Below, one piece after another: positions 2 through 43,700 of a stretch of 64,000 nucleotides of DNA (position 1 is the stretch's first letter; every line of letters starts with the position of its first letter). Source of the DNA: Schmidtea polychroa (Eukaryota); the NCBI GenBank assembly GCA_044892525.1, contig CM097887.1:122552397-122616396 (forward strand), given 5' to 3'. The notes under the pieces were generated by a model. The model searched no databases and had not been told where the DNA came from. It saw only the letters and a list, made by a program, of their open reading frames with translations. Position numbers and translations under genes: made by a program.

Positions 2-3000
2 TATAAGAGAGAAAAGAAAGTAAATTGGAAGTTGATAGTAGGTTTTCTACCATTTTTGGCAAAAACAATGGTGTTGCACGGTCATTCTAAAGACATACAT
101 AGAATAAAACGATTGATCAAAATACTGACAAAAATAAAAGGAACTGACGAGGAAGTCGGTAGACGATTTCGGAAAACAATGTATGATGAGGCAACGAGAG
201 CGCAACTGAAAAAGAACAAACCAAAATTCCTAGACAGATTTAGAAATCGATCAAACAGCAGCGATAGTGATGATGACGACAACGGGAATGACAAATACCC
301 ATATCCAAGTAGAAACCCGAATGAAAAGCCAATAGAAACAGCGCCATACTGGGAGAAAGAAAAAACAAATACCTGGATAGCCAACGGAAGTTATATACCA
401 CCGGATATCGTTGGACAACAAGCAGCGCTAACCATGACACAAAATATGTATCCACAGTTACCAAGTCAACCAGGTATGAACTATATGCCGACCCGAAGAA
501 CGAAAAGTGTAGACCAAGCGGACGACGTAAGAACGATAGCAGTGATGAGTTCACCAGGAGGTGCGGCAGTAACAGTCATGATCCAAATCAACGGGAAAGA
601 GACAAGCGCCATGATAGATACCGGAGCAAACGTATCAGCAATAGCAATAAACCAAATACCCAGTAAATGTTGGAAAGATATCGAACAAACAACTATCCAT
701 ATCATCGCATGCAGTAAAGAAACCGTAGACGTAGTAGGAAGATGGTGGACTACGTTACGATATCAGGATAACGAAATTGAAACGTATCTAGCGGTGATAC
801 CCAAACTGAGTGAACCATGTATAATCGGAACGGATTTAATGCCGGAATTGTTTAAGGAAGTAGTAATCGATTTAACAACAATGTGTCTAAAAGACAAAAT
901 GGGTAGAATATGCAAGATGAACGCAATAATTAGATGCCCGGAGAAAATAATTGTACCCGCAAAATCACAGATGATATGTCAAATAAAAGTGGATGCAGGA
1001 ATGGAAGGAGAAGTCATTTTTGAGCCAAGCAAATCATTCGAAAAACGACGAGAATTACCATTGGCAAGAGAAATAATAACAATAAATGAAGACGGGGAAA
1101 TACCAATTAACATCACAAATTTCGAGGAAGAAGACAAGATCATATATGAAAATGAAAGATTGGGTAGATTGACACCCATGATAGACATCGAATTACCAAA
1201 AATCACCAACGAAACAACGAAAGCGGACGAATTATGGATAATTGATAGCACCTTGCTAACGGAAAAAGAAAAGGAGAGACTTCAACAATTATTGATAGAA
1301 TATAAAGATATATTCGCAATTTCGGATTTAGATTTGGGAGCATGCGATGTTACACTACACGCAATACCATTAATAGACGAAACTCCAATCGCACTACGTC
1401 CATACAAACTAGCAGAGAAGCAAAAAGAGATAGCCGAGGCAGAAGTACAAAAAATGCTAGATGCACAAGTGATCGAACCAAGTTGTTCGCCATGGCAATT
1501 TCCAGTAGTCATGGTGAAGAAAAAAGATGGTACTCAGAGATTCTGTATCGATTATCGGAAACTAAATGCAGTAACAAAAAGAGACACATACCCATTACCA
1601 GACATCAATGAGATGTTACTTATGTTACAGGGGGCCGCATATTTTACATCTTTAGATCTGAAAAGTGGATATTGGCAGATCAAAGTCAAGGAGGAAGACA
1701 AAGAGAAAACAGCATTCACATTGGGCCGAGATCTATACCAATTCAGGAAAATGCCGTTCGGACTGACCAATGCCCCAGCATCATTCCAGAGATGTATGAA
1801 TTTTGTCACACACGGGATCAAGCAATGTATGGTATATATTGATGATTTATTAATATATTCAGCAACTTTCGAACAACATTTGGAGGACATTAGAAACGTG
1901 TTCATCCGATTACGACAATGGAAACTGAAACTTAAACCATCCAAATGTGATTGGGCAAAAGAAAAAGTTACGTTCTTAGGACACATAGTGTCAGCAAAAG
2001 GCAAAGAACCAGATCCAAGAAACATAGAAAAAATAAAAACATGTCCAGCACCAAAAACTGTCACCCAAGTTCAAGAATTTCTCGGATTATGCGGATATTA
2101 TCGAAAATTCATCAAAAACTATGCAGGCATTGCGAAACCAATACAAGAATTAGTGAAAAAGGATATTTCATTTATTTGGGGTGCAGAACAACAAAAAGCG
2201 TTTGAGACATTGCGAGATAAATTAATTGAAGCCCCAATACTAGTACATCCTGATTTCAAGAAACCGTTCTTATTAGCAACAGATGCAAGTGGATATGCAG
2301 CCGGAGCAATATTGGGACAACTCGACGAGGAAGGGAAAGAAAGAGTGATTGGATACTACAGTAGAACGTTTAAAAAGCACGAGAAAAACTATTCCGTAAC
2401 CGAGAGAGAAGCGTTAGCAATCATACAAGCAATTAAACATTTTCGATATTTGTTATGGGGACACGAAATATGTATCACCACGGATCATCAACCATTAGTA
2501 TGGCTTGGTCAACACAAAGAAGCTTCAAGTAGATTGATGCGATGGGCAATGCAGTTACGAGAATATTCACCGTTCATAAAATTCAAAGCGGGAAGAGCGA
2601 ATGCCAATGCGGATTGTATGTCCAGATTTATCTTTCCAGATTTGGTAGATCACGAAATGCAACGAATATGTCTGATGGTAGCAGAAGATTTAGATTTTTG
2701 CCAATTACGGAAAGACCAACAAGAGGATACAGAGTTGAAGCAAATCATTGAATATGTGAAAACAGGGAAAGCAGAGGTATATGAGAAAGATCAAAAATTG
2801 AAGGAGCATATGGATAAACATCGACATCGATATATTATCGAGAAGGACTGGTTATTGATAATGGATGGCGAGAAAAGACTGATGTGCATTCCCGAGAATA
2901 GACGTAAAGATCTACTAACACAATACCATGACGGAAGACTCGGAGGACATATGTCATCTAAAAAGACGTTGGCACGAATGAAACAAAAATATTTTTGGCC

Positions 3001-5698
3001 TACATTGACCGAGGATGTAACGGAATGGGTGAAAAATTGCATAACTTGCGCAACCAGAAAAAACACGGGAACAAAATGGAAGGCACCATTAAAACCAATG
3101 CCAGTACCAGCAGAACCAATGACTATGATATCTATGGATGTAGTCGGTCCATTACCAGAATCAGATAGAGGGAATATATATATATTGGTGATTACGGATT
3201 ATTTGACGAAATTCCCCGAAGCATTCGCAATGGCAGATCAGAAAGCAAGAACAATCGCAAAAATACTAGTAGAGGAGATATGCTGTCGATATGGAACACC
3301 GAAACGGATATTAACCGATCAAGGGACAAATTTCATGAGCGAAATAATGAGCGAAGTCACCAACTACTTCAAGATCGCAAAATTAAGAACATCACCGTAC
3401 CATCCACAAACTAATGGTATGACAGAAAGATTCAATGGAACACTGATTCAAATGTTATCAAATTATGTCGATCGTCATCAACGAGACTGGGATGAATATA
3501 TAAAATTATGTCTAATGGCTTACAGAATGTCGATTCACGCGTCCACAAAGATGAGTCCGTTCAAGTTGATGTACGGCAGAGAATGCAATATGCCAATGGA
3601 TTTAGAATATCAGCCACCAATATCACAATACATGGAAATAGACGATTATGTAACCAAGTTCAAGGAAAGAATGCAGGAAATCTGGGAAACTGCAGGATTG
3701 AATATAAAATTTTATCAAGAAAGTTACAAAGATCTACATGATAGAAAGAAAAACGTCAAACAGCATACGTTTCAAACAGGCGATTGGGTGATGATCGAAA
3801 CACCAGAATTAATTCCAGGAACCACCAAAAAATTACAACGAAACGGTAAAGGGCCGTATGAGATTCTATTCGTCGGAGAAACTAATGTAAGAGTACGATT
3901 AATGAACAACCCTTTTACAAGACCAATATACGTAAATGTTGCACGATGTAAGCCAATTCCGAAAACCGCCACCAGTCAGCCAGAAGGACGTACATTAACG
4001 ACAAGATCACAAACGTATAGAATAAACATGTTACAGCAGATAAACGAACCAACAGGTAATCGATTAGGGTTACAACCATCAGAAGCCGAGAAAATCATAA
4101 AGGAAGTAAAAGTTAAAATGCCCGGATGGGCAGAAGACAGATTAGATTTTGAGATATTGGGAGGTCTGCTAACAATGATCGAAAATTATGCAAACCGAGA
4201 AAGAACACACCCATTACTCAGGGTAGTAAAAAGTCAATGGCCTATATTATTTACGATCACAGACCACTATGGAGATACACCGCTGCACAAACTTTTAAAG
4301 GTCGGGAATAATGAACAAATACTGGAAACGATCGAAGCATTTCGCGATTGTAACATTTCGACGGATCAAGAAAACAACCAAGGTTACACCCCACTAATGA
4401 TAGCAGCCAATCGGGATAAAGCTAAAGATATTATCATCGCATTACTTGAAACTGGGTCAAAGATAACCACACAAGACCACAACCAGAAAAATGCACTACA
4501 TCATGCAATCGAAGGGAAAAGTACGGAAGCCTTCATAATCTTAGTAGATCTATTATCATATGAGGATAATAGGGAGATAGGAAACATGTATGACGGGTTA
4601 TTAACTGCAATCAAAGAGAAATTAATAACAATTACTGGAATACTAATTGCGTGGAGGAACCCGATCAAAAACGATTATATGGTAGATATAAACGAAACAT
4701 TTACCAAAGGAGAAAACACCTTGATGAGAGAAGCGATGAGAGGACATCACCTATTCGAAATTCCAAAACAACTACTACAACGTGGCATAAAGTTCTCAAA
4801 TCACAAAGACGAACAACTAATCAGAAAACGAATTACCAACTTAGAAAAAGCTATATCTCAATTTACCGATAAAGTACAAGTAAAATTTTGGGAAACCGTG
4901 AGTGTTTTACATATGATGGAAACTATGAACAACATTCGAGAAAACTACCTAAGTATTATTCAAGTTCTAACGGCAGAGGAACGCATTAACAGTTCGAACA
5001 AGAAAAAGATAAAAATAAAGAAAGTAAAAGCAAGAGAGTCTGAGGAACAAGTCGATCAAACAATAACCGATATAGCAACAACAAGTAAACCAAAGACAAT
5101 AAACTCCGACCAAGAGATAGTAGTACGTAAGGCTAAAGAGGTATTCTTTGAAGAAATGCAAGATCTATCCGATGAAGCGATACTATCAAAAATAACAAAA
5201 ACAGTACACACCTACGCAAGAGACCAGACCACAAATCTAGACATAGAAAAAATAAAAACATTTATACCACTAGCATTCACCTTACCAACAAAAGATTCAA
5301 GAACACCATTACAACAAGCCATTTTAGCAGCAAAAGAAAACAGAGCAATAACCATCATAAGAATCCTCAGGGACTTCGGAGAAGAATCTAATGCAAAAAA
5401 TGAACAAGGAGAAACGGCAATGATGTATGCAGCAATAACAAAGATACACCCGAAAACCTTACATATACTACATCAATCAGGTTCGAGACTGGATGAAATA
5501 TCAAACGAAGGAAATTCTACCATGGATTGGGCAACAATACAACCAAACTTGGAAATGATTAGATTCATTTGTAAAAATGCTACAAGAGCTGAGGTAGAAA
5601 ATATCTGTAAAAACACGTCACAGTTCCAATGGAACGATACGGATGAACTTAGAAGCTATGAAGTTATTGCTAACATGGAGAATACCACAAAGCAATAA
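2..5698 (+). CDS. pol: Retrotransposon polyprotein: aspartic protease, reverse transcriptase, RNase H, integrase, plus C-terminal ankyrin repeats (5'-truncated by the window edge)
   Basis: Frame is open from position 2 (the track's start at 32 is TTG). Protease SAMIDTGANVS (DTG at 617-625); RT RFCIDYRKLN, MPFGL and YIDD (1835-1846); RNase H LATDASG, EREALAI, TDHQPL; integrase HDGRLGGH...CITC, MDVVGPLP, TDQGTNF, ERFNGTL, GPY; ankyrin-like GDTPLH, GYTPLMIAA, QKNALHHA, RTPLQQA, GETAMMYAA. Confidence 0.97.
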   Translation, partial: YKREKKVNWKLIVGFLPFLAKTMVLHGHSKDIHRIKRLIKILTKIKGTDEEVGRRFRKTMYDEATRAQLKKNKPKFLDRFRNRSNSSDSDDDDNGNDKYPYPSRNPNEKPIETAPYWEKEKTNTWIANGSYIPPDIVGQQAALTMTQNMYPQLPSQPGMNYMPTRRTKSVDQADDVRTIAVMSSPGGAAVTVMIQINGKETSAMIDTGANVSAIAINQIPSKCWKDIEQTTIHIIACSKETVDVVGRWWTTLRYQDNEIETYLAVIPKLSEPCIIGTDLMPELFKEVVIDLTTMCLKDKMGRICKMNAIIRCPEKIIVPAKSQMICQIKVDAGMEGEVIFEPSKSFEKRRELPLAREIITINEDGEIPINITNFEEEDKIIYENERLGRLTPMIDIELPKITNETTKADELWIIDSTLLTEKEKERLQQLLIEYKDIFAISDLDLGACDVTLHAIPLIDETPIALRPYKLAEKQKEIAEAEVQKMLDAQVIEPSCSPWQFPVVMVKKKDGTQRFCIDYRKLNAVTKRDTYPLPDINEMLLMLQGAAYFTSLDLKSGYWQIKVKEEDKEKTAFTLGRDLYQFRKMPFGLTNAPASFQRCMNFVTHGIKQCMVYIDDLLIYSATFEQHLEDIRNVFIRLRQWKLKLKPSKCDWAKEKVTFLGHIVSAKGKEPDPRNIEKIKTCPAPKTVTQVQEFLGLCGYYRKFIKNYAGIAKPIQELVKKDISFIWGAEQQKAFETLRDKLIEAPILVHPDFKKPFLLATDASGYAAGAILGQLDEEGKERVIGYYSRTFKKHEKNYSVTEREALAIIQAIKHFRYLLWGHEICITTDHQPLVWLGQHKEASSRLMRWAMQLREYSPFIKFKAGRANANADCMSRFIFPDLVDHEMQRICLMVAEDLDFCQLRKDQQEDTELKQIIEYVKTGKAEVYEKDQKLKEHMDKHRHRYIIEKDWLLIMDGEKRLMCIPENRRKDLLTQYHDGRLGGHMSSKKTLARMKQKYFWPTLTEDVTEWVKNCITCATRKNTGTKWKAPLKPMPVPAEPMTMISMDVVGPLPESDRGNIYILVITDYLTKFPEAFAMADQKARTIAKILVEEICCRYGTPKRILTDQGTNFMSEIMSEVTNYFKIAKLRTSPYHPQTNGMTERFNGTLIQMLSNYVDRHQRDWDEYIKLCLMAYRMSIHASTKMSPFKLMYGRECNMPMDLEYQPPISQYMEIDDYVTKFKERMQEIWETAGLNIKFYQESYKDLHDRKKNVKQHTFQTGDWVMIETPELIPGTTKKLQRNGKGPYEILFVGETNVRVRLMNNPFTRPIYVNVARCKPIPKTATSQPEGRTLTTRSQTYRINMLQQINEPTGNRLGLQPSEAEKIIKEVKVKMPGWAEDRLDFEILGGLLTMIENYANRERTHPLLRVVKSQWPILFTITDHYGDTPLHKLLKVGNNEQILETIEAFRDCNISTDQENNQGYTPLMIAANRDKAKDIIIALLETGSKITTQDHNQKNALHHAIEGKSTEAFIILVDLLSYEDNREIGNMYDGLLTAIKEKLITITGILIAWRNPIKNDYMVDINETFTKGENTLMREAMRGHHLFEIPKQLLQRGIKFSNHKDEQLIRKRITNLEKAISQFTDKVQVKFWETVSVLHMMETMNNIRENYLSIIQVLTAEERINSSNKKKIKIKKVKARESEEQVDQTITDIATTSKPKTINSDQEIVVRKAKEVFFEEMQDLSDEAILSKITKTVHTYARDQTTNLDIEKIKTFIPLAFTLPTKDSRTPLQQAILAAKENRAITIIRILRDFGEESNAKNEQGETAMMYAAITKIHPKTLHILHQSGSRLDEISNEGNSTMDWATIQPNLEMIRFICKNATRAEVENICKNTSQFQWNDTDELRSYEVIANMENTTKQ

Positions 5699-7253: not shown

Positions 7254-7421
7254 AAAGGATTATGACTGTATATAGATTGTAAAAAGTAAGTAGGTAATAT
7301 TTATTTATATAACAGTATTCTATATTTTTATATAAGCGCGGTATCAATAGTATATAATGATGGGGATAATTAATATGAAAATAAAATTAGATAAGGATTG
7401 AAAAGTATATATAAATTAAGA

Positions 7422-7781
7422 ATGGAGCGAATAGGCGAGGAAGTAAATCACAGTACAACAACCGAGGAGATGTGGAAACAACAATGTGCAATGTTAACTC
7501 AAGTGATTTCGAATTTACAGGAACAAGGACTCGCTGTACAAAGAAGCTTAGTCGAAAGTTTAAATAAAGGCTTCAGTTATGTAAGAATAATCGAAGATCA
7601 ACGAATAAAAATAGAACAAATGCAGCGAGAGATAGACCGAATATCACGATACAGCCAGGTGCAAGAAGAGGAGTTAATAAGAATCGCGGAAGAGATGGAG
7701 CGAGAGGAGATAGAAGACTGGTCAGAATGGTTAACCAGCAGGGAAGAGGGCGGACAAGAGGCCGACTCTTCCAGCCAATAA
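7422..7781 (+). CDS. Small acidic coiled-coil accessory protein (119 aa from ATG 7422)
   Basis: Open frame with the element's A-rich codon bias, Q/E-rich helical sequence, flanked by AT-rich spacers. The track start at 7398 is TTG; the first ATG is at 7422. Confidence 0.7.
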   Translation: MERIGEEVNHSTTTEEMWKQQCAMLTQVISNLQEQGLAVQRSLVESLNKGFSYVRIIEDQRIKIEQMQREIDRISRYSQVQEEELIRIAEEMEREEIEDWSEWLTSREEGGQEADSSSQ

Positions 7782-7870
7782 ATATAACCTAAAATAGCAA
7801 TGTAAATAACTGTAAATAAAAATACGAAACTGTACCAGTAACGAATATATGTATATATATAATTATAGAA

Positions 7871-9258
7871 ATGGATAAGCGACAACGAGAAGAATTCAAA
7901 GAAATTGTTGAACAAATCAGAAAGTCCACCACAATTCGAATACACAACCATGTAACGTGTGGAATATGCAAGAGCTTATTAAGAGAACCTCACCAAACCA
8001 GATGTGGATGCAGAATGTGCAGAGAATGTGTAGAGGAGATAATAAAGAAGGGACCACAATGGTGCCCAGTATGCAAAGAAACAATGATAACAAGTTTGGG
8101 AGATACAAACGAAGATAAAGCAGCTGTAAAAGATATGTCGAATGCAAACCTAGGATGTAAAAACACCCATGTAATTGGCGAGGAGTGATATGGGAAGTGA
8201 GGCAACATATGGAGCAATGTGAATATAAAATCAGTCAATGCAAACGTTGCCAAGAAGAGATTAAAGTCAATGAAGAAGCAGAACATCAAAGTCGATGCGA
8301 AGAAAGACTGGAGAAATGTGAGTATTGCGGAGAAACCGACACCTGGAAAAAACTAATCAGTCAACATCACAACATACAAGAGGAGAAAGTGTGCGCAGAA
8401 TTCAGAGGAGAATGTCCCAATAAATGCGATAAACCCGGAGTAATAAAACTCGCTCAACATCTGAAAGAATGTGAAAGGAAAAAGATAAGGTGTGTGTTAG
8501 GAAAATGGGGATGTCAGAAACAATTACACCGAGGGGAATTACCCCAACATCTAGCAGAAAACGTATCAACACACGCGGAAATATGGTCAACGGTATTACA
8601 AGAAAACGAAAGGAAAACCGAAAACTTAGAAAGAGAAATAGTCTCGCTAAAAGCGTTGGTAAAGGAACTATTGGAAGAAAAGGAAGCATTTGAAGAGGCG
8701 AGAACAAGTACAAAGATACAGACAAATCTAGTAGAAACTAGCAACATTATGGTGAAAGAACTACATCAAAAAGTAAGCGAATTAAACCTCAACGAATTAA
8801 TACCTACGGCTCCATACATATGGAAAATAACGGGAGTAAAAGAGAAGATGCAGAGAGCGAGAAATGGAAAGGATACAACCTTACTAAGTCCAGCATTCTA
8901 CTCATGGAAAAACGGGTATAAAATGAAAATGAAAGCATACCCCAATGGGGATGGAAGTGCATACGGAACGCATTTCTCAGTATTCTTCTTGATGTGCAAA
9001 GGGCCATACGACGAGTTAATAGAATGGCCATTCAAAGCAAAAATAGACCTCGCAATGATGAACTATCAAAGTATACATGAACAGAGTTTCCATACAGCGG
9101 GAAACCTCGTATGTTACCAAAGGCCCTTGGAAGAAGAAGGACCAGCAACTGGAGCACCAAATTTCATCCTACAGCGGAAAGTAGAAGACATGACGAGAAA
9201 CGACACTATATACATAAAAATAGCGGTGAGGCGAGACGGGAAGAGTAGGACTGAGTAG
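7871..9258 (+). CDS. TRAF-family protein (RING, TRAF zinc fingers, coiled coil, MATH/TRAF-C), intronless, split by a 1-nt frameshift near 8160-8170
   Basis: RING CGIC...QTRCGCRMCREC...CPVC in 7871-8188. In the other frame PCNWRGVIWEVRQH, then C/H zinc fingers, a coiled coil and MATH motifs YIWKI, SPAFYS..GYKM, YPNGDG..GTHFSVFF..KGPYD..EWPF, YQRP. Confidence 0.92.
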
Positions 9259-9473
9259 AGAGACGAATAATTTTGTATATACTAATTGTAAATATCGGCG
9301 TATATATCCAGTAAAATATTATATAATAGTGTAGAAAACCCCAAATCTACCAAAGGTAAACTTAAGCGAAAAACTCCTAAAACAACTCCTATAACGAATT
9401 ATAAAAATAAATAAATAATAAACCAGATATAAGCGTACAACGTTAAGTTAATGATATCGTTATTTAGACAAAG

Positions 9474-10511
9474 ATGACACAAGAAGGAACTGAAGCCCCA
9501 AACCACGAAACCAAAGTCAATAAAATCCATAAGGGAAAATGGGTCAAAGTAATGTTACAATTGACGAACCAGACCCACAACCACCTCGAAGAGGCCAGGG
9601 AATACGAGAATAACAAATATCAGTGGTTAGTAAACAATTTAAGAGCCGAAGCAGAAGCATGCAAAAGAGCCTCTAAGTGGGCATCATTGGAAAACACTCG
9701 CCAAGAAGCGCACAGCCACTATTTAAAACAGTTAGTGCAGGAAGCACGGAAACGATTGACGGACGAAAACACAAAACGAGAAGCAGAAAAACAAAAGGAA
9801 GGAAGGAAAATGAATCACCTATTGGCAGAAGCCCGAAACTGGAAGCGGCAGAACAAAGAGATGAAAAAAGAAATGAAAGAATTGCCTATGAGATTAGAAT
9901 ACGAAAGCGAACAAGGCAAATGGGAGGAAAATCTGGTCATAAGAGAAGAACTGAAACGGCTCAGAAAGATTGCGGCCCGAAGCCAAACATGGCAGACCAA
10001 AGCCATGGAATTTGAAAGACATCTAGCCATGAAAATCTCCATAAGGGAGCACGAGAATGCCGCAATGGAAGAACTGATACTTCAACAGTCAGGACGACTC
10101 GTGGAACTGGTAAATAAGGTCGCAGAACTAGAACGAGATGTCAACGGATACCAAGGAGCTCTGGAGCAGAGAAATATGGTACTGGCGGGGAAAAACAAAA
10201 AGTTAGAAAACGAAAGGAAAATGTATAACGAAAATCTCAAAAATCTGGAGATAGAGATCAAGAAATGGGAAAACGGCGAAAAAGCGGAAGAGTTAGAAAA
10301 ACAGATAGAGGTACGGGATGACGAAACTAGGTATTTAACCTACCTATTGGACGAGGAACTCAATGTGTCAAGAGCGCTAAGAGACGAAGTCCAAGAACTT
10401 AGAGCGCAGATTCCCCGGTACTACATCCCATTTGATCCCATCGCACTCCAATTACAAACGTCAGTAGAAAGCGATGAAGGATATGTAGGCCAGGAAGAGA
10501 CCTTTGTATAA
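9474..10511 (+). CDS. Long coiled-coil accessory protein (345 aa)
   Basis: ATG-to-stop ORF, E/K/R/Q/L-rich helical sequence, element codon bias; no catalytic motif recognised. Confidence 0.8.
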   Translation: MTQEGTEAPNHETKVNKIHKGKWVKVMLQLTNQTHNHLEEAREYENNKYQWLVNNLRAEAEACKRASKWASLENTRQEAHSHYLKQLVQEARKRLTDENTKREAEKQKEGRKMNHLLAEARNWKRQNKEMKKEMKELPMRLEYESEQGKWEENLVIREELKRLRKIAARSQTWQTKAMEFERHLAMKISIREHENAAMEELILQQSGRLVELVNKVAELERDVNGYQGALEQRNMVLAGKNKKLENERKMYNENLKNLEIEIKKWENGEKAEELEKQIEVRDDETRYLTYLLDEELNVSRALRDEVQELRAQIPRYYIPFDPIALQLQTSVESDEGYVGQEETFV

Positions 10512-10684
10512 AGATAAAGGGGAAGATAAAAAATATAAAAATCGGGACCTGTATCCCAACCAAAAAATTAATGGTACGGTAAAAGTATGAAAGGGACTGT
10601 AACCCTGATTATAAAATAACATATAAATGTATAAGTATAAGCCGCACTGTAGCGCAATTATTAATTACGTATATATTATAGAAA

Positions 10685-11386
10685 ATGAACGCTGAGAACG
10701 GACAATCTATCATAACACCTATAATTGAATTAGAAGAGGGGGAAATTGAAGTTGATGAAGTGGAAAGGAAGAAAACTATCAAGGAAGAATTACAAGAAGA
10801 GAGACAGGAAAACGAAAGATTAGTAGAAAGGTGGAGAGATAATCGAAAAATGATTAAAGTATTGAAAAGAGAATATATCTTGTTAGAAGGAGTAAAGAAA
10901 GAAGTAGAGGAAGAAAACGAATGGCTTCACGAGCAAAGAAAGCGAGGGAGAAATTGGGAAAAGATCGCGGAAGAATTATGGCAGGAGAGGGCCAGTCGAA
11001 AGGCCGACGAAGTGATTAGTGACTATTGGAAAACCGAGGCACGGAAACACCAAGAAAGCCTGAAAGAGTTACAACTCCAACTACACCAAAAACAGAAGGA
11101 ATGTGAGATAATGAGACGAATGAACAACAAATACCAGGAAATAGACAACGAAGAAGACGGGGAAAGGGAAAATGATTTTCTACAGATAATGAACCATAAA
11201 AACCTCGAAAGAGCAACACAAGAAATAAAAGCACTAAAAGAAAAAATAATAACCCTAAAGCAACAGTTAGACGAAAGAGACAAACAATTAAAAGTACTAC
11301 CCGAATTGAGAAAACGAGTAATAAAAGCAGAAACGAGAGTGATGAGAACATCCGAGAAAACCCGTAAAAAGAAAACCCGGCAATAA
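10685..11386 (+). CDS. Coiled-coil accessory protein (233 aa) with a basic C-terminus
   Basis: ATG-to-stop ORF, E/K/R-rich, ends RKKKTRQ. Confidence 0.78.
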   Translation: MNAENGQSIITPIIELEEGEIEVDEVERKKTIKEELQEERQENERLVERWRDNRKMIKVLKREYILLEGVKKEVEEENEWLHEQRKRGRNWEKIAEELWQERASRKADEVISDYWKTEARKHQESLKELQLQLHQKQKECEIMRRMNNKYQEIDNEEDGERENDFLQIMNHKNLERATQEIKALKEKIITLKQQLDERDKQLKVLPELRKRVIKAETRVMRTSEKTRKKKTRQ

Positions 11387-11441
11387 TTAAAGATGAATGA
11401 TCAATGTAAATAATTGTAAATAAAAATTTTCGTATAGTAGT

Positions 11442-12077
11442 ATGTGGTTCGGAACAACCCTGATGACAATAATGATGATAGCGATAAACGGAATACCCAT
11501 GGGGCAGCCAATCCCAACACTCTGGGAGAATCCCGAGAAACAGCAAAACCCGTTAACCAAACTGAAAAGCGAAAGAAAGCTCTCCAACAACATCCCGAAG
11601 CAATGCTGGAACAAAGCCGTCTGGCAAAAACTTCAAATGCAACTCCACCTACAAACCCAAAAAATCGAACAGCTCGAAATTCTCTTACAAGAACAAACCA
11701 CCCAACAATCCTTGAAGGAAATCATCGTGAAGAAGGAAGTAAAAGAAAGCCAAGTCTTACTCTATGCTACCATCAGTGAAACCCTTATCATCTGCGCATT
11801 AGTCATCTGGAAAGCATATGATATTCATCGAACATGGAGAAGAAACCAGTCACTATCCGAGAAACACGAAAGAAAGAACCCACGACCGAAAAATAAACAT
11901 AAACGAGCAGTACATTTTCAACAACCAAACCCACCCGACCAAATGCAACTAAATCTATCTCCTGATCAAATGCCTGTTACAATCCAGCTCCCCACGATAA
12001 CAACTTCAACCAGCCATCCGACCCAGAATTCAACCAACCAAGACAGTAATAACATTCCGAACCTTGAGATCATGTGA
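11442..12077 (+). CDS. Putative type I membrane accessory protein (211 aa)
   Basis: Signal-peptide-like MWFGTTLMTIMMIAING, Q/L coiled coil, TM-like VLLYATISETLIICALVIW, a basic stretch and a P/Q/T/N-rich tail. Confidence 0.72.
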   Translation: MWFGTTLMTIMMIAINGIPMGQPIPTLWENPEKQQNPLTKLKSERKLSNNIPKQCWNKAVWQKLQMQLHLQTQKIEQLEILLQEQTTQQSLKEIIVKKEVKESQVLLYATISETLIICALVIWKAYDIHRTWRRNQSLSEKHERKNPRPKNKHKRAVHFQQPNPPDQMQLNLSPDQMPVTIQLPTITTSTSHPTQNSTNQDSNNIPNLEIM

Positions 12078-12839
12078 CATCGACCATTCATAAACTTTGT
12101 GTGTATAAATCCGGTCACCTAAAGTGGCCACTGCTTGCTTATATTTGTCCTTTTATCTGTTTAATTAAAGTATTATTTAGTTATTTTAATTTTATGTTTG
12201 TGTGAATGATGATCGTGAAATTAGTTGTTATGCCGAAAAAAGGTATGATTTAAACGTATGATATTATGTGAATTGCGGGGCGCAATTTTAACGGGCCCCG
12301 GAGTGATTTGTTGGGCTAAAACGTGGAGTTTCGAAAACTGGAGCAAATAGAAAAGTAATCCTTGAAAAATTAACGAAATAAAATAAAAATATAAAGTACC
12401 ATCAAATTCTCACTAATAAAGCAAAAAGGAACAATAAAATATCAATAAGAGAATAAGAATAAGTAAAACAAACTAAATAAAACCCAATAAACCCCTTGAG
12501 ATTTAGAAATAAAGCGATTTAGGACCCAGCAGATGAAATAGAATAAAATAAGTAAAAAAGTGACAACAAATAAACGAGAAATTTAAGAAATAAATAAAAA
12601 AAAATAAAACTATCTTTAAGTCTAATTAAAACAAAAAATTATATTACAATAAAAATAGGAGGAAAATAATAAAAATAAGAAAATAAATAAAATAATAATA
12701 AGAAATAAGTTAAGTCATTAAAATCTAATATATTATAATAAAAAACATAAAAATAATAATAAATAGTAAAAATACAAACAAGTCGTGTCCTGATTGGACG
12801 AAAAATAATATATAAGGAACGGAAAATATCTGTAGATTA

Positions 12840-12919
12840 CCATTTTTAAAAAATATTCTACAGGTGACCATTTTTAAAAAATATTCTACAGGTGACCACT
12901 TTTAAAAAATATTCTACAG
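12840..12919. repeat. 28-bp tandem repeat, about 3 copies (CCATTTTTAAAAAATATTCTACAGGTGA)
   Basis: Units start at 12840, 12868 and 12896 (third unit partial, one mismatch). Confidence 0.92.
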
Positions 12920-15219
12920 ACTTGACAGATTTCGGAACCTTTAATTAGCCTACAGCGAACTAGTTCAGAGATTTCCAAACCAAACCGAGGAAGGAATATA
13001 TAGAGGCCAAACTACAAATCCATTCGGGAAAAAATCTTAAATTCAACCGATTTTAACTTCAGTTTTCGAAACTCAAGGTATGCCTCGACAGTTGTTTTAT
13101 TTATGGTTATTAGGTTAATTTCGTTAATTATTATAAATATAATAAAACAATTTCATATAATAAATTTATTTAAATGAAAAGTTGCCTTTCTTCATGGTAC
13201 CGGCGACTGTACCATCTGAGAGCTCCCAGTATGATGTGGACGAGTTGGAATTGCACTGCAGTTGAGGACACCACCGTGGAAAGGTTGGTATGCATAAGAA
13301 ATCACGAACATGCTGAAAGGAGAATGTGATATTTGTAGAGAGTGATATTGTCATATTAGATATCCATCAAGGAGACGAGGAGGTTTCGGTTACGTAGGAG
13401 GAGCAACATCATACTCGGAGATCCAAATGATATGGTCGCCGGGTAAATTTTATTTATGCATTTTTCTATCATTCAGTTTGATTATTGTATTGTTGATTTG
13501 ATTGCATGGAAACGAGTTGATTGGTCCCTCATGACGGTGCAAGGAGGCGGCAGCAATGAATGCCTTCTTGGGTGTGTCGTGAGGGGTGAAGAAACTCAGT
13601 AGGTGGAACATCCAGTTGATAAGTGAAAATTTCCTTCATCAAGCGCGATCGTCCATAGAGCTTACCATCGATTCATTTAGCCCAATCGAGATTTCCAGTA
13701 GATGTAGAGATGATTTGAATTCCGAATGCAGGCAGTTCAGAGCGAGATAGGCAGTGACGATAATAATCCACATAGCTAGGAGAAAGATTTTTTTTTTGAT
13801 ATTCAGCCGGTCAATCGACGTAGCTAGGAAAGAGTAGTGTTGACCATGGATTGCAAGTAAATCCAACGATTTTTCAGTGACGCTCTGTGTTTGCAAGGTT
13901 CTGTCTGATTTGTGCCGTCATGATGTTAGTGGTTACATCCATTGCCGATGTACTCTTACGATTTGATTGTCGTCCGTGAGTCGCCAATGCTAGTGATAAA
14001 AATCTCTCGCTGACAGGGAAGTAAACATCTTGTAGGGAAATTATCAAAATTCTTACTTCGAGCTCGCAGACAGTAGTTGCCAACGATAACGAAATCAGTT
14101 GATTTACATTAGCCAGCGTAGAGTTAGTCGACAGGAGATATCTGATAATGTCCTGGAGAAAGAGATAACATGTTAGTTTTTCTGGGGAAACGTCAAATGG
14201 ATAAGCTGATAGTCATTGATCTGAATTTAGATCGTAAAAGGAAATTAGATGATAATGTTGAGCTTACCCAATAATCTATGAAGTTGTCGCCCACTCAGAT
14301 TGAATAATCTGCTTTTCCAATTCATCTACGGCTGCTTATTTGAGGGATCTATTACGCAACCACTATTATTCCGACTTGAGCATGCACATACACACGCACC
14401 ACAGTCAAATATACATAGGGCAGTGTAAAAGTAAATACACAATTTTTGGTGAGGTAATAGCGGTATGATGATGTGAATTTTTCTAGAACGGTGAGATAAT
14501 AGGATGAGGTAAAGGAATGGATTTCCCCTACACAACTCGATATATCATAATTTCTCACAACAGCATAAACCATCATTCGCAGTGATAGCCAACATACAGT
14601 TACAGATACCACCAGGAGTAATGACACACCTACACAGTCAATCATAATGCATAATCACAAGTGAACGTTTTCCATGACGACGATTTCGACGCGTTATTGG
14701 AATTAATTAGATGTAGATTTAGAGCAGAATTTTCAACTGATCACTTGATCAATTCCATAATTTTGAACGAGATAAAAACATAAATAATCTATTCCGTCGC
14801 CGTGAATTATTTCTCTGTACTTTTAGGTACGCCTACATCGACGGATTGCCATAATGATATCGGCAAATTTTTAAATAAAAATATACTAAGGGGAACAAGG
14901 TGGAAGGGTTTTTCAGTGAGAAAGACGAGTTTTACCTGGGGATGGTCCCATCCGAAAGTAAACCCAAAGGGCGAGGTTCATGTAGAGAGAATTTTCCGTA
15001 TGAAATCCCCGTTTCCTTTTCTTAATTTACACGAATTAGGTGAAGAGATTTGAATGTTTACAACTGAATGACTGCGTATAGAGATGGATGAAGAAGTGTG
15101 TGGGTCATCGTTGGGTGGTATGCTTGATAAACTCCAAAGCCACGCTCAAAAATTTGATTATTCTTTTCTCACTAATAGAGGTTTTTCCGAGTAAATATAA
15201 ACAATGATTGATTTTCTAG

Positions 15220-15981
15220 ATGGCTACATCGTCCAACCACGCCAAAGAACTTCGCCCGTGTTTTTCTTGTGCGGACAAGAACGCGGATATCGCCCAACTG
15301 CATTTATATATCGGGGCTCTCAAAAAGAGAATTGATCTCTATGAAGGAACGTGGTTCTCCCCGCCACAAATGAAAGAGGAACGCAAGAAAATTCTCCGAT
15401 TAGAGCATTGCAGGGACAGCCTGCTAGAGGAAAGCCGGTGTCAGCGGCTCACCATCAAAGCGCAATCGGAAGCCCTCCATAAGGTGTATACGGAGGCAGA
15501 ATTGGCTAAGCGGGTGCGAGAATTTCCCGTTCTAGAGGGGACGAATGTCTTTCCCCCTCACCACCCGTCTCCTACTTCTTCCAGCTCGCACTGCCAGGGG
15601 CACGGCTCACAACTGCCGCCCATTCCAGCCCCGGTGTTGTCAAGTCACCAGCCAAAGACAGGTGGACCTACCAATCCCATCGTAGCTCCAATCCTGGTAG
15701 CACAAATCGGTACCACGAACACCGAAAACCCCCCGACTACCCGCAAACGGAAACGGCCAACTCGAGCCGAGAAGAACCAAAAACGCCGAGATGCGATGAC
15801 AGCACTCGAGACGTCCTTATCGGCGGCGAATTCAAAAATCCAAGAGATAACGTCCTCCCATTCAATCCCCTCAAAGGAAGTCTTCCGCATTGTTCCAGCT
15901 GAGGGCATCAAATACATTGTAGATAGCCGATTACCGGTCGACATAGATGAGATACTGGCCGATGGAGATAACTTTGTTTAA
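15220..15981 (+). CDS. ORF inside the candidate LTR (253 aa): CxxC, coiled coil, P/S/H-rich linker, basic NLS-like segment
   Basis: ATG-to-stop ORF directly preceded by TTTTCTAG. Contains PCFSCAD and RKRKRPTRAEKNQKRR. Visibly more GC-rich than the upstream ORFs. Confidence 0.7.
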   Translation: MATSSNHAKELRPCFSCADKNADIAQLHLYIGALKKRIDLYEGTWFSPPQMKEERKKILRLEHCRDSLLEESRCQRLTIKAQSEALHKVYTEAELAKRVREFPVLEGTNVFPPHHPSPTSSSSHCQGHGSQLPPIPAPVLSSHQPKTGGPTNPIVAPILVAQIGTTNTENPPTTRKRKRPTRAEKNQKRRDAMTALETSLSAANSKIQEITSSHSIPSKEVFRIVPAEGIKYIVDSRLPVDIDEILADGDNFV

Positions 15982-16805
15982 CGTGACGTACAATTGAGTT
16001 TGATTTCCTCTTCATTGAGTTGTAAATTATCTTGTGAATGTTGCTAATGTTATGTCTTTTTGACTGCTGTTGATCTGTTAGTAGTAACGATATTTTTATA
16101 GTTTCAGCGTCAATAAAATTTTTTTGTTTGATTTCAGTTTTGTCGAGTTTTCATATATTTGTTTGTGCAATTAGGATAAATGAGATAATGCTGCGGAATG
16201 AAGGTAATTAAAGTTGAAGGTCGTTCCTTTGGACCAGGATCAGACTGAGTGACACGCATGTATGTGGGTAAGTCCTTCTAAGGCACCGTAGGACCCGAAC
16301 CGAGAAAGGGTTAGGAGTAGTCCTAAGGCAGGGGCTCACCTGCTAACTTTTTCCGACCCGTGTGAGCAGCACCAACATGGAACATCACCATGGGCTCATA
16401 CGTGGGAATATGCAATCGATCATTTGGAGTATGTGTAAGAAATGTATAACTGAGTAATGATGCTTGATAGGTGTGATGGAAAGGCATGCATAATTTTCTT
16501 TCTTCTCCACATACGCCAACACGTATGAAAACAGAAAACGTTAATTAATTAATTAATTGGCTAATGGAAAACCCGAGCCAATGGAGAACCCGAGAGATAA
16601 AGGAAACCCGAGCTGGGTAAACAAGAAGAAAGGCAAACAAAAGGAAAATTTGGGCCCATTAGCTTGACACAATGATTAATGGGAAAAGAGTAAGGAGAAG
16701 ATAGCGCGCGTAGGAAGACCGGTAGGGCCATTAATTATCTGGATTCGTTGGACCATTATGGATGACAGCCGAAGCAAACACGTAGGAGAAAATGTCAAAC
16801 GAAAG

Positions 16806-16909
16806 ATTGGCTCGGCAATAACCATTTGTCATCCTGATTTCGAGGAGTATATAAGCAAAGGGAAAATCAGAGAAAATCGGCATTTTGCCTCAGGTAGGTT
16901 AAGAAGAAT
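16806..16909 (+). promoter_or_regulatory. Putative LTR promoter (CCAAT box, TATA) and downstream splice donor
   Basis: ATTGG at 16806, TATATAA at 16848-16854, TCAG about 30 nt downstream, CAG|GTAGGT at 16901-16909. The TATA and donor are not conserved in the related LTR at 42.8 kb. Confidence 0.4.
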
Positions 16910-17421
16910 TAGACTGTAGGAAAAGTGGTAAACGAATTAGGGAAGTAGGGAAAAGAAGAAATAGAATTAAGAATACGGAAAGGCGAAAAGGGATCAAACC
17001 AAAGAGAAACCGAGGAAAAAGAGAGTCGAGATAACTAAAGGATCAAAAGGTGAATATTGTTTGTTTGCAAAGCATCAACGCCGAGCGGAGAATCGTATAA
17101 AACTTTGATTGGTAATTGTAGCGTGATAATAAATTGTGAACTTGTTGTTTCAATATACGTTGGGTCGTTCATTGTTTTACTTTAAAGAACACCAGGAGTC
17201 AGAGAGAACCGACTTGAAATAATCCAAAACCCAACAGACTAATGAAATCAACAAAGTATTTGATCTTTTGTCAAAACAAAAATAGAAGAAATGACAATTA
17301 ATCTCAACAATTCTTTTGAAATAAGTAATGAGTAAAATCTAGTTATTTTTTTTATTTTAGTATGAATCTGGACATTTAAAACAAATATCAAGTAATATCA
17401 ATATTTGATACAACCCATTAA

Positions 17422-18394: not shown

Positions 18395-19642
18395 TTATTT
18401 ATTCGGCACAAACATTTTAATCCCCTCTCTCTCGATTTCTGTATAATTCAATATATCCAACAATTCTTTATCAACTTCATCTGTTTTAGTTAGCGACGAA
18501 ACTCGATCACAGGCCAGTTTGTTCGCTGTGCAAATGTTCTTGATGGCCAGAATGGCATGCTGCTGGATATAGGGATTGCATAAATCGATTCTTGTGCTCG
18601 ACATTACAAGTTCCAATCCACCAGTGTCAACGACAATGTCTTGAATTGATTTATTATCATGGACTAAGTTAGAAATTAATTTGATAGTGAATTTTTTTAT
18701 GTTGAATATTGGTCGATCTATAAAAGTTTCATTTTTACTGAATGAATAATGGCTTTTAAAAATTTTATTTTCTTGAGGATCTTCATCGTATTGACGGAGA
18801 ATTCTTAGAACTTCTAACAATGACTTGATAAGAGCAGATTGTATTTCACATGAAATTATTTCTTTGATGTTATGAATATTGGATAATATCATAAGAGACA
18901 ATTTAATTATATCCAATTGCGATTGGTCAGATTTTTTAAATAAATCTTTATCGTCTTCTACTTTCAATAGCAAATAATCGACTAAAAATTTCGTATTTTC
19001 GATAGACATGTCAATATGTGCTTCATCAATAAAATATAACAACTGTACAATTACAACAGGATTACAAAATTTGAAACAATTTCTAACAAATCTAGAAGAT
19101 TTTTCCAACATTTTAGTTAGTAAAATATTACCATTTTCTATTTCAGATTCGTCAACTGCTTTGAAAATATTAGATATTAAAGAGAAATTTATACATGAAC
19201 AAACATAATCACATGAAAATATTTTGCTACTGTAAACATGCAATATCAGCCAAATAATAGTTCTGATTTCAGTGGAAGTTGAAATTTCAACGCAAACAAA
19301 AATTAAAGTGTTCAATATTTTTATAAGGCGATAATCGTATTGGTGCAAATTATCTTCAGAACATAGAAAGTTGTGTAACGTTTGGGATGCAACTAACTTT
19401 ATTGTTTCATCATCACATTCAAATTTAAATGATAAGCAGCAAAATATGAAGTCTAAAAGTTCTGTGAAACATTCGGAAGGAAATTTTTTCAATCCTAATG
19501 AATTTCTAAAAATTTGAATTGACTTAATTAGCAATTTTATATTATTGCAAGATTCTGATTTCAATAATGGTTGAACCTCTTTGAAGATTTTTAAAATATT
19601 CTGTTTATTGTAACTATCGATGTCTTTCAAATTAAAATTCAT
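18395..19642 (-). CDS. ATXN10: Ataxin-10 homologue (ARM-like repeat protein), single exon, 415 aa
   Basis: C-terminal KKFTIKLISNLVHDNKSIQDIV...GGLELVMSSTRIDLCNPYIQQHAILAIKNICTAN matches the ataxin-10 signature domain. Confidence 0.85.
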   Translation of the reverse strand: MNFNLKDIDSYNKQNILKIFKEVQPLLKSESCNNIKLLIKSIQIFRNSLGLKKFPSECFTELLDFIFCCLSFKFECDDETIKLVASQTLHNFLCSEDNLHQYDYRLIKILNTLIFVCVEISTSTEIRTIIWLILHVYSSKIFSCDYVCSCINFSLISNIFKAVDESEIENGNILLTKMLEKSSRFVRNCFKFCNPVVIVQLLYFIDEAHIDMSIENTKFLVDYLLLKVEDDKDLFKKSDQSQLDIIKLSLMILSNIHNIKEIISCEIQSALIKSLLEVLRILRQYDEDPQENKIFKSHYSFSKNETFIDRPIFNIKKFTIKLISNLVHDNKSIQDIVVDTGGLELVMSSTRIDLCNPYIQQHAILAIKNICTANKLACDRVSSLTKTDEVDKELLDILNYTEIEREGIKMFVPNK

Positions 19643-40700: not shown

Positions 40701-43700
40701 TTTGTGTGGAAATGCAATGTACAAAATTGAAACTTCTAAAGTTGTATTAAATGAGAAAGACTTTAATTTCTTTCATAATATTTTTGGAATTGTGGCTCTT
40801 ATTCTTATCACTGAGGCGACAGACTTTTTGTCTGGCTGCTAGCTTAGTAAAATTGGATATTCTTCACTACACTGTAATAAAATTTTATGGAATTTTTTGT
40901 TACAATTTTGTCCATATTTTTAGAGAATATGGGATAAATTTCGCACTTTTTAATGATGAGTATTGCACTTGATAGTTTCTCACGTTGTTACTCTTGTATC
41001 TAATAAATCCTGGAATTTGTTCCATCTGTACGTCTATGTTGGCAGTGTTAATTATTATGGTTGTTTGTGGAATAAAGAAATTTGAAGAGCCCAATAGAGT
41101 CTCCTTTAAAATTTGAATCGGGATTGTTGAAGTGGATGTGTATTTGATTTGTGTGTGCGTGTGCTTATTTTAGATGTGTAACAGATAAGTAAAACTAACT
41201 TCAATTTAATGCAAAAACGTAATAACAACAAATGTATACAACTTTTTTTCAAATATAAAAAGATAAACCTTAGTCCTTGGCTTTTTAAATAAACATGTGC
41301 AATTCAACATTTCATTATTGCATCATTTTGTATCCTTTCTTGTATTTGGTTTGTCTAATGTTAAGGTTTTGATAGATTGTTTTCTGTTTTAATTCCCACG
41401 TTGATTTGTAGTCTTCTAGATTCTTTTGGTTTCTATTTATTTTTGGATCGTTTCTGGGATCTTCTTTTAATTTTTGCTATGGTAAATTATAATTTTTATT
41501 GATTTTGGATGATTCTTACTTTTAGTTATTTTTAAATTTATAATTGCCAGAATTGCAATATCTCACATAATAAAAAGGTACCAATAAAATTATTCACAAC
41601 ACATTCCCATAACGAAATACCACTATAATTACCAAATATTGGGATGGCACACCTAGATCATGTTGGAGTGGAAATGATTATTTCATCACAAAATAACAAA
41701 ATTAAGAATATCACATACGGTACAATGAACATGTCCGACAGTCAAATTTTAGATGTTTTGTTTATTGGTTAAAAAATGTTATCCCAAATTAGTTTTACGT
41801 TTTCATATTTATTTTGATATCATTTTTCTATTTTGTAGCTCTATATATCTCTATAATGATGGAGAACAAACAGCAATTGTATATTATTCCCATATATTAT
41901 ATTATTCTCTACTAATCTATGAGTTAAAATAAATACCAGTTTTTATTACTATTTTTCATGCATAGGAAATAATTTTAATAATCCAAGTAAATGTTATTAT
42001 TTTAAATGTTTAGAGGCCTTTTTACCTCCTCCGTTCCTTAATGACTTCATTGACACCTTTATTACGACTAATATGTGTCATAGACCTAAATAAATAATCT
42101 AAGGAAGGTAAGTCTAAACTATAAGGCGAATGAAGTAATAATTTAATAGTATAAAAATGTTGAGGTCAGTAAATTAAAATAAATTTAAATAAAATTTAGG
42201 TTGAATAAAAAAGATAAATAAAAGTGTGGTCATACACTGAATTGATAGTAAAGTTATTTATGATGGAAACAGTATTAGGAAATAGCAAAAGCAGTTACGA
42301 AAGGCAAAAATCCGAAAATTCGAAAAAATCAATAAATTGTAAATTTATCGAAATTGAATCGGAAAAACGGGACAGGTATAGATGAGCTAATGGTCAACAA
42401 GATGATGATTAATGATTTATCAGAAAATAGTTAAAAATGGTCGAAAAGCATTCGAATGTGTAAAACAGAAATCATTAATCAATTAATTGATTGGATAATA
42501 GGAAACCCGAGAGATGAAGGAAACCTGAGCCAATGGAGAACCCGAAAGATGATAGAAACTCGAACTCGGTTAACATGGAAAATAAACAAAATGAGAATCT
42601 CGGAAGGCCAATACCATGACAGCATGATTAATTTAGACAAACAAAGTTTAGGACTATTACGAAGGATTAACAAAAGGAGGCAATTAATCACGATATGGTT
42701 CAAACAACATTCGAGGAACCGGTTGTCGAACCATTGTCAGATAGAAGCAATCCGGTCAAAAACCAACTAATCAAAGTCAAAATTCAAAATAATCGGCATT
42801 TAGCATCAGCTAGGAATTCGAAGAAAGCGAGTGTAAGCAAATGGAAATTCCAAATTAGGGGAAAAGAAGATATAGAACCTGGGGATACGTAAAAAGTGTA
42901 AAAGAATTAAATCTAATAGAAAAGGAAAGAGGTGATCAAAGAAGCTATGGAATAAAAAGGTGAATATTATCTTTTGTCAAGGCATCAACACCGAGCGGAG
43001 GATCGGTCAAACCCATACAATTTTGGTTATTGATTATTTGGTGTAGAGAAAAATATATTTTTGTGATTTAAATATACGCTGGGTAGTCTGTTAGTGGCGA
43101 TTTTCAATTAAAAGGACAGTGGAGTCAGAGGTTACCGACTTGAATTAATAAAACCCAACAAAACGCTTTGATTTCCTGGTTCATTTACAGAGTATAGAAG
43201 ATAATACAATTTGATTTAGATGCCTTACCACCATAATCTGATAATACATGAGGATGGATGTTAAATTTTAAGTAGATTTTTTAGACCCACCTGAACTATA
43301 TCCTTCAAAGGATTATCATTATCTAAACTATTTGTCTTTTTCACATTTGATGTTTTTGTCTATTTAACACAAATCTTCAGCACTACGTTTTGATGTATTA
43401 TTTTAATAACACTTAAAATGCTTATTGCTGAATATTAATGCAATTTAAGAACAAAAATGAAGATAAATGACATTATCTACACGTTAATTAATTTCCAATA
43501 AGTTTAAAATGTTTGAAATATTTCTTTCATTATTAATTAAATTAGAATAGTGAATTTATTTCCTCAAAAATAATAACTTATTGCTCGGAAAATAATTCCT
43601 TGTAAATCGCATGCACGTTGGACCATATCTTCGTATGAGAGAGAAAAATGTTTTTTATATTAATATTTGAATTCGTATATAACATATTTTTTAAATTAAT

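Follow-up and report, generated by a model that had tools for sequence, protein, structure and literature searches.

Genes and features of the locus

The window, a 64,000-nucleotide stretch of Schmidtea polychroa DNA from an AT-rich assembly, begins inside a retroelement. Judged from its domains and repeats, its first 17.2 kb are the 3' half of a Burro-like Ty3/gypsy LTR retroelement (Table 1). The Ty3/gypsy assignment comes from the order of the pol domains (protease, reverse transcriptase, RNase H, integrase), with Ty3 Gag-Pol as the closest solved relative (E 1e-121), and the likeness to Burro/GYPSM1 from the ankyrin and MATH/TRAF cargo together with a multi-kb LTR. The element has eight ORFs downstream of pol in all, several of them with an AG at most 3 bases from the ATG. 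The one that concerns us here encodes 253 aa and begins at 15220.

The pol frame (2-5698) is open 5' of its first ATG, with a hydrophobic stretch there, and the polyprotein probably extends upstream of the window. By eye, an insert between protease and reverse transcriptase falls where Burro has a dUTPase-like domain. The 536-aa ORF (5643-7253) shares 56 bases with the end of pol; it contains two hydrophobic segments and matches no Pfam family significantly. A TRAF-like gene is spread over two consecutive ORFs 20 bases apart, a RING (7871-8188) and a zinc finger/MATH (8209-9258), which may be either a natural split or decay. The word GTAAATA occurs eight times in the scanned part of 7200-17400, and by raw count six copies are in spacers adjoining accessory ORFs (7802, 7812, 9288, 11406, 11416 and 15191, the last of them 29 bases 5' of the ATG at 15220); possible explanations are a shared processing site or a forkhead-type site. 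Outside the element, a host gene with an ataxin-10 domain (ATXN10) is a single 415-aa ORF on the minus strand (18395-19642) that ends about 1.2 kb from the LTR's 3' terminus, and an intact 443-aa Tc5/pogo-type DDE transposase with Brinker and HTH domains occupies 48512-49843, also on the minus strand. Nine runs of N, assembly gaps totalling 2,993 bases, interrupt the window, and listed ORFs that run over them, such as 24558-25220 and 27929-29140, are not real.

Table 1. Features of the element, its LTR and the 253-aa ORF, in window coordinates.
Feature	Positions	Strand	Remarks
pol ORF: protease, RT, RNase H, integrase, C-terminal ankyrin repeats	68..5698	+	Frame open from window start
Seven accessory ORFs: 536 aa, 119 aa, RING, TRAF zinc finger/MATH, 345 aa, 233 aa, 211 aa	5643..12077	+	
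Probable 3' LTR, 4,928 bp, inverted ends TGTTGGG...CCCAACA	12309..17236	+	End motif; 5' LTR outside the window
Possible upstream promoter and ATG-free leader exon: TATA-like 12809, donor-like 13078	12809..13079	+	Motif matches; a lead only
Splice-acceptor-like pyrimidine tract and AG, directly 5' of the ATG	15207..15219	+	
253-aa ORF, ATG to TAA	15220..15981	+	Intact; member of an unnamed family
CxxC (C14-C17)	15259..15270	+	Lineage-specific
Conserved helical core, residues ~24-115: heptad helix, Trp/Pro kink, long heptad helix, short helix, invariant His	15289..15564	+	
Basic cluster (NLS-like, 175-179) and basic helix from P180 into a short amphipathic helix, to ~213	15736..15858	+	
C-terminal acidic-hydrophobic motif, residues 238-244	15931..15951	+	Common to two homologue subgroups
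AATAAA in a T-rich stretch 3' of the ORF, possible own poly(A) signal	16112..16117	+	0.08 expected in 15982-16200
Probable promoter/R/U5 zone: TATA-like 16848, donor-like 17050, AATAAA 17128 with GT-rich tract	16848..17236	+	
Second, diverged LTR-like copy	42462..43160	+	67-70% identical to 16528-17236; ends on the same word

The probable 3' LTR and the place of the ORF in it

The probable LTR is recognised by its 7-base inverted TG...CA ends, TGTTGGG at 12309 and CCCAACA ending at 17236, and by an AATAAA with a GT-rich tract. The pair of ends fits the LTR end motif as published (PMC3601003, in part), and TGTTGGG occurs a single time in 7200-16500 (minus one short stretch), at 12309. No strong or clear polypurine tract is found at the LTR start. 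Because of the inverted ends, the matching end word of the second copy and the AATAAA with its GT-rich stretch, we regard it as very probable that the 253-aa ORF, which ends 1.1 kb 5' of the AATAAA at 17128, lies inside the 3' LTR. The first-pass annotation had placed it more narrowly in U3. That placement we hold to be probable, as the U3/R borders of an LTR need RNA data (PMC3601003, in part). Of the signals near the 3' end, the second LTR-like copy retains the donor-like 17050 and lacks the TATA-like 16848.

The second LTR-like copy belongs to a related family. If it began at 42158, a candidate position, its length would be about 1 kb and the ORF would be missing from it, but alignment gave this start no support, and 63 of 300 shuffles scored as well at its 5' end. 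No homologue of the ORF is found near 42462-43160. Within the 3' LTR itself, near its 5' end and just 3' of a TATA-like site, three tandem copies of a 28-base unit occupy 12829-12919; two of them include a donor-like word, and an enhancer repeat is possible. Further in, a 40% GC stretch (13170-14350) has successive stop-free frames of 61, 92 and 112 codons on the minus strand, without a Pfam match, which could be a decayed antisense gene or chance.

An intact frame of distinct composition

All 253 codons of the ORF are open, as first reported, and the remaining five frames have 5-11 stops. A stop-free frame this long appears in none of 3,000 dinucleotide shuffles of 15100-16100 and in 2 of 1,000 when the whole LTR is shuffled piecewise, and one of at least 250 codons in 1 of 3,000 shuffles of the ORF itself (15220-15981). 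The layout described by the first-pass annotation is also there: a CxxC (C14/C17), helices at residues 17-41 and 48-89, a linker (residues 111-172; P 23%, S 13%, T 10%, H 8%) and a basic cluster (residues 173-190) with a net charge of +9. Among the 15 sequencing runs listed, seven contain part of 15100-16150, and one has more than half of its words; this richest run may be the source sample. None of the runs listed as containing it is an RNA run, which says nothing either way about expression.

The composition of the ORF does differ from that of the A-rich ORFs of the element, with A at 0.23 of fourfold sites against 0.37-0.69 in the others. Codon composition differs both from the pooled element ORFs (chi-square p=6e-9) and from the neighbouring host ATXN10 gene (p=1e-7), and the LTR flanking the ORF has no A skew. 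The first-pass annotation read this as a separate acquisition. Composition sets the ORF apart, and separate capture is not thereby proven, because two internal ORFs, at 9474 and 11442, show the same kind of shift away from pol (p=5e-5 and 1e-5) and the searches made turned up no cellular source.

The same foreign composition, together with a second LTR-like copy that has no such ORF nearby, would fit a structural RNA-packaging or chaperone protein like the ORF1p of non-LTR elements, possibly from another element nested in the LTR. For such a protein there is a model in ZfL2-1 ORF1p, in which an Arg-rich motif, credited with binding the RNA of its element, comes after a dimeric coiled coil (PMC3905857, in part). 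ZfL2-1 ORF1p is an antiparallel dimer with an esterase domain from a non-LTR element (PMC3905857, in part), and what we find here is a predicted parallel dimer, no esterase and an LTR element. The ORF1p classes that we considered (CR1/L2, L1 and Jockey types) were rejected, with no RRM, zinc knuckle, esterase domain or downstream ORF2 in evidence. No terminal repeats or target duplication frame the ORF among the listed repeats, no homologue is joined to a reverse transcriptase or transposase domain, and GTAAATA precedes the ORF just as it does in three spacers of the other accessory ORFs. We consider this reading distinctly improbable, and treat the ORF as an accessory gene of the gypsy element in what follows.

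Homologues without a name

The homology search that the first-pass annotation had named as a check returns 15 homologues, a family without a name. A HMMER scan of 1.84 billion representatives gives ten of them (E 6e-10 to 5e-5), and profile searches add two (five matches, three of them known before) and later three. The ten that were looked up are singletons without a name. The first ten homologues align to residues 43-115 of the ORF at 37-44% identity and free of internal gaps, and are 37-86% identical among themselves over the same core. Because of this gap-free identity, the family is, on alignment evidence, old and under protein-level constraint.

In 13 of the 15 records, the homologue is a gene model fused to a Pfam domain of an unrelated host gene, and the 13 domains are all different (glycine cleavage P, SNF transporter, CRAL-TRIO, ribosomal L21, actin, subtilase, ABC, tyrosine phosphatase, sybindin, LSM14, MCM, M1 peptidase and ankyrin). 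None of the 15 has a match to reverse transcriptase, RNase H, integrase or transposase. An element origin for the ankyrins of homologue P0016 was considered and ruled out (best E 0.94). The simplest reading is that the homologues are a dispersed repeat whose ORF was joined to nearby host exons by gene predictors. Solo LTRs would produce such host-fused models, and the homologues would presumably have their own location in LTRs. The chimeric records (13 among P0002-P0016) are probably annotation artefacts, with real exon capture as a possibility, and an ORF stitched into host gene models in 13 of 15 records is an artefact worth flagging to annotators.

Other searches give the ORF no identity. 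A word-index search with the ORF alone confirms 0 of 394 candidates, JGI metagenomes 0 of 292, and IMG/VR 0 of 20 pattern matches; exact copies of 10 window proteins are absent from the protein collection; Pfam has no family for the ORF and the PDB sequences no match; and PHROGs returns two matches at E about 0.2.

Three conserved blocks

The alignments define three conserved blocks: a long helical core, a helix of basic character and, at the C-terminus, a short acidic motif. Core columns invariant in 11 of 11 sequences number about 10-11 (W45, P48, L68, E71, R73, Q75, R76, Q82, P112 and H115), and the hydrophobic core columns coincide with heptad positions.

For the second block, an Arg-rich motif starting at a proline is present in 9 of the 15 homologues, and by eye most of the other six records stop or splice out before it. 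The strongly basic cluster pointed out by the first-pass annotation holds up, in alignment with this basic helix. When a profile built from six homologues alone is run on the ORF, its top window falls at P180, a score equalled in none of 1,000 tail shuffles and in 38 of 5,000 local shuffles; the window at residue 171 is nearly equal (25.5 vs 27.3), and two unrelated element ORFs score 19-22. The basic helix of the ORF has 6 R and 4 K in its best 20 residues, compared with up to 11 R in homologues. One homologue's Arg motif weakly matches Pfam REV (E 7e-4; 19.1 bits vs a cut-off of 22), a match in 1 of 11 members that reflects low complexity.

For the third block, residues 239-244 are six identities to the extreme ends of homologues P0014 and P0015, reached in 72 of 20,000 shuffles. 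In sequence the motif resembles SUMO-interacting motifs, as judged by their consensus. Two patterns, a Pro-anchored one for the second block (0/20,000) and one for the third (7/16), were composed with the alignment in view and carry no weight as tests.

The remaining two parts of the layout are not family features. A CxxC is found in 0 of the 13 homologues with an upstream segment and nowhere at all in 12 of 12, which rules it out as the functional core and excludes a zinc-binding CxxC coiled-coil family. The P/S/H linker spans 20-36 residues in six homologues and 65 here.

The fixed residues bear on two alternatives. It is very unlikely, in our estimate, that the ORF is a relic, a gene of a once functional family that is now a silent passenger in this copy or lineage. 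A relic would account for the branch of the ORF, longer than any other on the tree, and for its basic motif, which has diverged furthest; against it are the intact frame, 11 columns invariant in 11 sequences, a core without gaps, and the start, acceptor-like and poly(A)-like signals all in place. Only 2 of the 13 branches of that tree are well supported, and we leave it out of the argument on origin. The invariant W45, E71, R73, R76 and H115 suggest a fixed partner, as would be expected of a coiled-coil decoy or adaptor acting on cell-death, immune or ubiquitin/SUMO pathways in the manner of the element's other cargo. The element does carry RING/TRAF and ankyrin cargo, and Burro carries MATH/TRAF, BIR, BCL2-like and SUMO-like domains (PMC6431247, in part). 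That other cargo is, however, recognisably host-derived, whereas the ORF protein has no cellular match, and such a role leaves the Arg-rich motif unexplained; we think a host-pathway modulator improbable. By comparison with its homologues, then, the 253-aa ORF is established as an intact, old and selected accessory gene of a giant Ty3/gypsy element.

Predicted structure

AlphaFold predicts confident helices at residues 17-41, 48-89, 92-101 and 182-213 with disorder between them (mean pLDDT 66.6, pTM 0.36), and a prediction without alignment is similar. Helix 182-213 is continuous, basic and then amphipathic, with pLDDT above 90. In the single-chain model the core helices form a hairpin instead of a dimer. 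Two copies of residues 14-118 are predicted to form an in-register parallel coiled coil with a score of 0.62, against 0.00 for the best of three controls; the runs agree in at least 94% of contacts (pLDDT 84), and the in-register contacts fall at conserved heptad positions. In a microbial benchmark 21 of 30 one-chain pairs attain the mark that we use for a dimer, as do 0 of 23 single chains; in a eukaryotic one the counts are 17 of 29 pairs (animals 7/16) and 0 of 30 single chains. Of the 7 eukaryotic pairs that lack an older solved relative only 1 attains it, so memory of coiled coils may contribute to the score. In the predicted dimer C14 and C17 sit at the N-terminal end of the interface, where the two CxxC could share a zinc, in this lineage only.

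A structure search, the other check proposed at first pass, puts no name to the protein. Foldseek has no match at E<=0.001 among viral and PDB structures, and the VIA fold search returns generic helical hairpins only (best Z 9.4, rmsd 1.5, 69 aligned), below the tool's helical-bundle level. In the ESM Atlas the best neighbour (0.85) has no name, and delta antigen (0.78) and bZIP (0.76) are leads only.

Candidate expression signals

The acceptor-like context directly 5' of the ATG is shared by 2 of the 83 ATGs in 12901-17237, and there are five acceptor-like sites of this kind in 12720-15219. An out-of-frame ATG, 17 bases 5' of the ORF start, would be lost on splicing. In three homologue models the ORF is entered four residues ahead of its Met, as would be expected of a real acceptor, but predictors choose such sites freely. 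A leader could come from the 5' LTR, where the candidate is ATG-free from 16860 (3' LTR numbering) to the donor-like site at 17050. Rfam has no match in 12950-17400 at E<=1, and a bacterial promoter scan, which does not apply to a eukaryotic element, is at chance level.

A tentative reading: an RNA-level regulator

The first-pass annotation had described the layout as that of a nuclear regulator, and the conserved core, the basic helix, the C-terminal motif and the predicted dimer lend this support. Our own reading of its function, which we hold tentatively and at a little under an even chance, is that the ORF product is a nuclear, dimeric RNA-binding regulator encoded by a spliced RNA, working like Rev, Rex or CERV and unrelated to any of them. 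Motif matches strongly suggest that the ORF sits in U3 and would be expressed from a spliced RNA, joined at the acceptor-like site before the ATG. This RNA would start either in the 5' LTR, its leader running through to the 3' LTR copy, or at a promoter near the LTR's own 5' end, and it could end at the poly(A) signal at 16112, inside U3. The protein would dimerise through the long coiled coil and enter the nucleus by its basic cluster; its basic, Arg-rich helix would bind the element RNA, and the short acidic C-terminal motif would recruit a host factor. The putative regulator would then steer splicing, poly(A) choice or export, such that full-length genomic RNA is made and leaves the nucleus. 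An unspliced read-through RNA would need such help because of the eight downstream ORFs, the acceptor-like AGs and the poly(A)-like signal 5' of R. A strict leucine-rich nuclear export signal is absent from the ORF by the usual pattern; there are three loose matches, one at 230.

The idea put forward at first pass, a transactivator or silencing suppressor, is a regulator at the level of DNA or chromatin: a dimer in which the basic helix and short zipper bind LTR DNA, with the acidic motif for activation or SUMO binding, acting on the LTR promoter or against silencing. Helix 182-213 has the continuous basic-then-amphipathic course that this requires, and the parallel dimer predicted for the core would agree with it. 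Members of the bZIP class have an N-x7-R/K-x9-L spacing followed by the zipper. That spacing is not found in the ORF and is found in 1 of the 12 homologues tested, so we do not class the protein as bZIP; by eye, homologues have Arg runs at the positions where bZIP proteins have small base-contacting residues, and the bZIP neighbour in the ESM Atlas scores only 0.76. The C-terminal motif can be compared with the putative SUMO-interacting motifs listed for herpesvirus ICP0 orthologues (PMC3161977, in part), and an anti-silencing role would have an object, as planarian LTR elements are under PIWI silencing (PMC8532177, in part). On balance we judge a DNA-level regulator unlikely, yet a serious candidate. 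The homologues' Arg-rich motif and the splice-acceptor context favour an RNA-level role like that of Rev somewhat more, against which it must be said that basic helices bind DNA too.

A stronger form of the RNA-level reading is that a family of Rev-like dimeric Arg-rich regulators resides wholly inside giant animal Ty3/gypsy LTRs, each a self-contained U3 unit with promoter, intron, ORF and poly(A) site. We find this rather doubtful. If true, every LTR, abandoned solo LTRs included, could supply a trans-acting switch for the production and export of full-length genomic RNA. RNAi against this one ORF would also give a way to ask how elements with so many ORFs get their cargo expressed and deal with PIWI silencing.

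Comparison with known systems

Complex retroviruses characteristically carry regulatory genes in U3. The sag gene of MMTV and the nef gene of HIV have coding sequence in or overlapping U3 and are expressed by splicing; their products are, for sag, a superantigen of the membrane and, for nef, an adaptor that is myristoylated. The parallel drawn with them at first pass applies to position in U3 and does not extend to the protein, as neither layout is seen in the ORF. A further comparison is with Rev, Rex and Rec, small proteins with an oligomerising helix and an Arg-rich helix; the ORF has a predicted dimer and a basic helix that has diverged from the Arg-rich motif of its homologues and stays in register with it. 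The ORF differs from them in having no significant sequence or fold match and in a long coiled-coil core that lies 20-65 residues from the basic helix. Membership of the Rev family itself was rejected, with no Pfam family for the ORF, REV below the cut-off in 1 of 11 members and no PDB sequence match.

Among retrotransposons, Burro/GYPSM1 is, by its published description, the nearest to the host element. The two share a pol of Ty3/gypsy type that carries ankyrin repeats, as well as MATH/TRAF cargo, accessory ORFs and a multi-kb LTR. Burro/GYPSM1 has one giant gag-env-pol polyprotein with BIR and BCL2-like domains (PMC6431247, in part). Here the TRAF parts and six other ORFs follow pol as separate frames. 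A gene inside the LTR is not mentioned for Burro in the available text of that paper, and the available parts of PMC6431247, PMC11410931, PMC8532177 and PMC13524379 do not describe such an LTR gene family. Extra orphan ORFs are known in long-LTR retrotransposons, such as ORF0 of Retrosat2, outside the LTR (PMC3485330, in part). In the literature searched we find no conserved stand-alone non-host gene family in a gypsy LTR, and in the open-licence literature no paper on this ORF family, which the supplements of the Burro paper or Repbase may mention.

The literature searched holds one tested RNA-export factor of an LTR retrotransposon, CERV of the C. elegans element Cer1, which is not in the LTR. 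CERV is made from a spliced mRNA and is needed for the export of unspliced genomic RNA (PMC10309623, in part). The protein proposed here would resemble it as a nuclear orphan, encoded by an LTR retrotransposon, that multimerises and has an NLS and a helical zipper domain; CERV differs in having 517 aa, exons shared with gag, globular M and G domains, a Cys loop and no recognised RNA-binding motif (PMC10309623, in part). The ORF, compared by description, encodes 253 aa, is predicted to be all-helical plus disordered with a basic helix, and lies very probably inside an LTR. CERV shows that an LTR retrotransposon can evolve an export factor of this kind (PMC10309623, in part), and an old, conserved, unnamed family borne by LTRs would show convergence on the gene control of complex retroviruses in a giant gypsy lineage.
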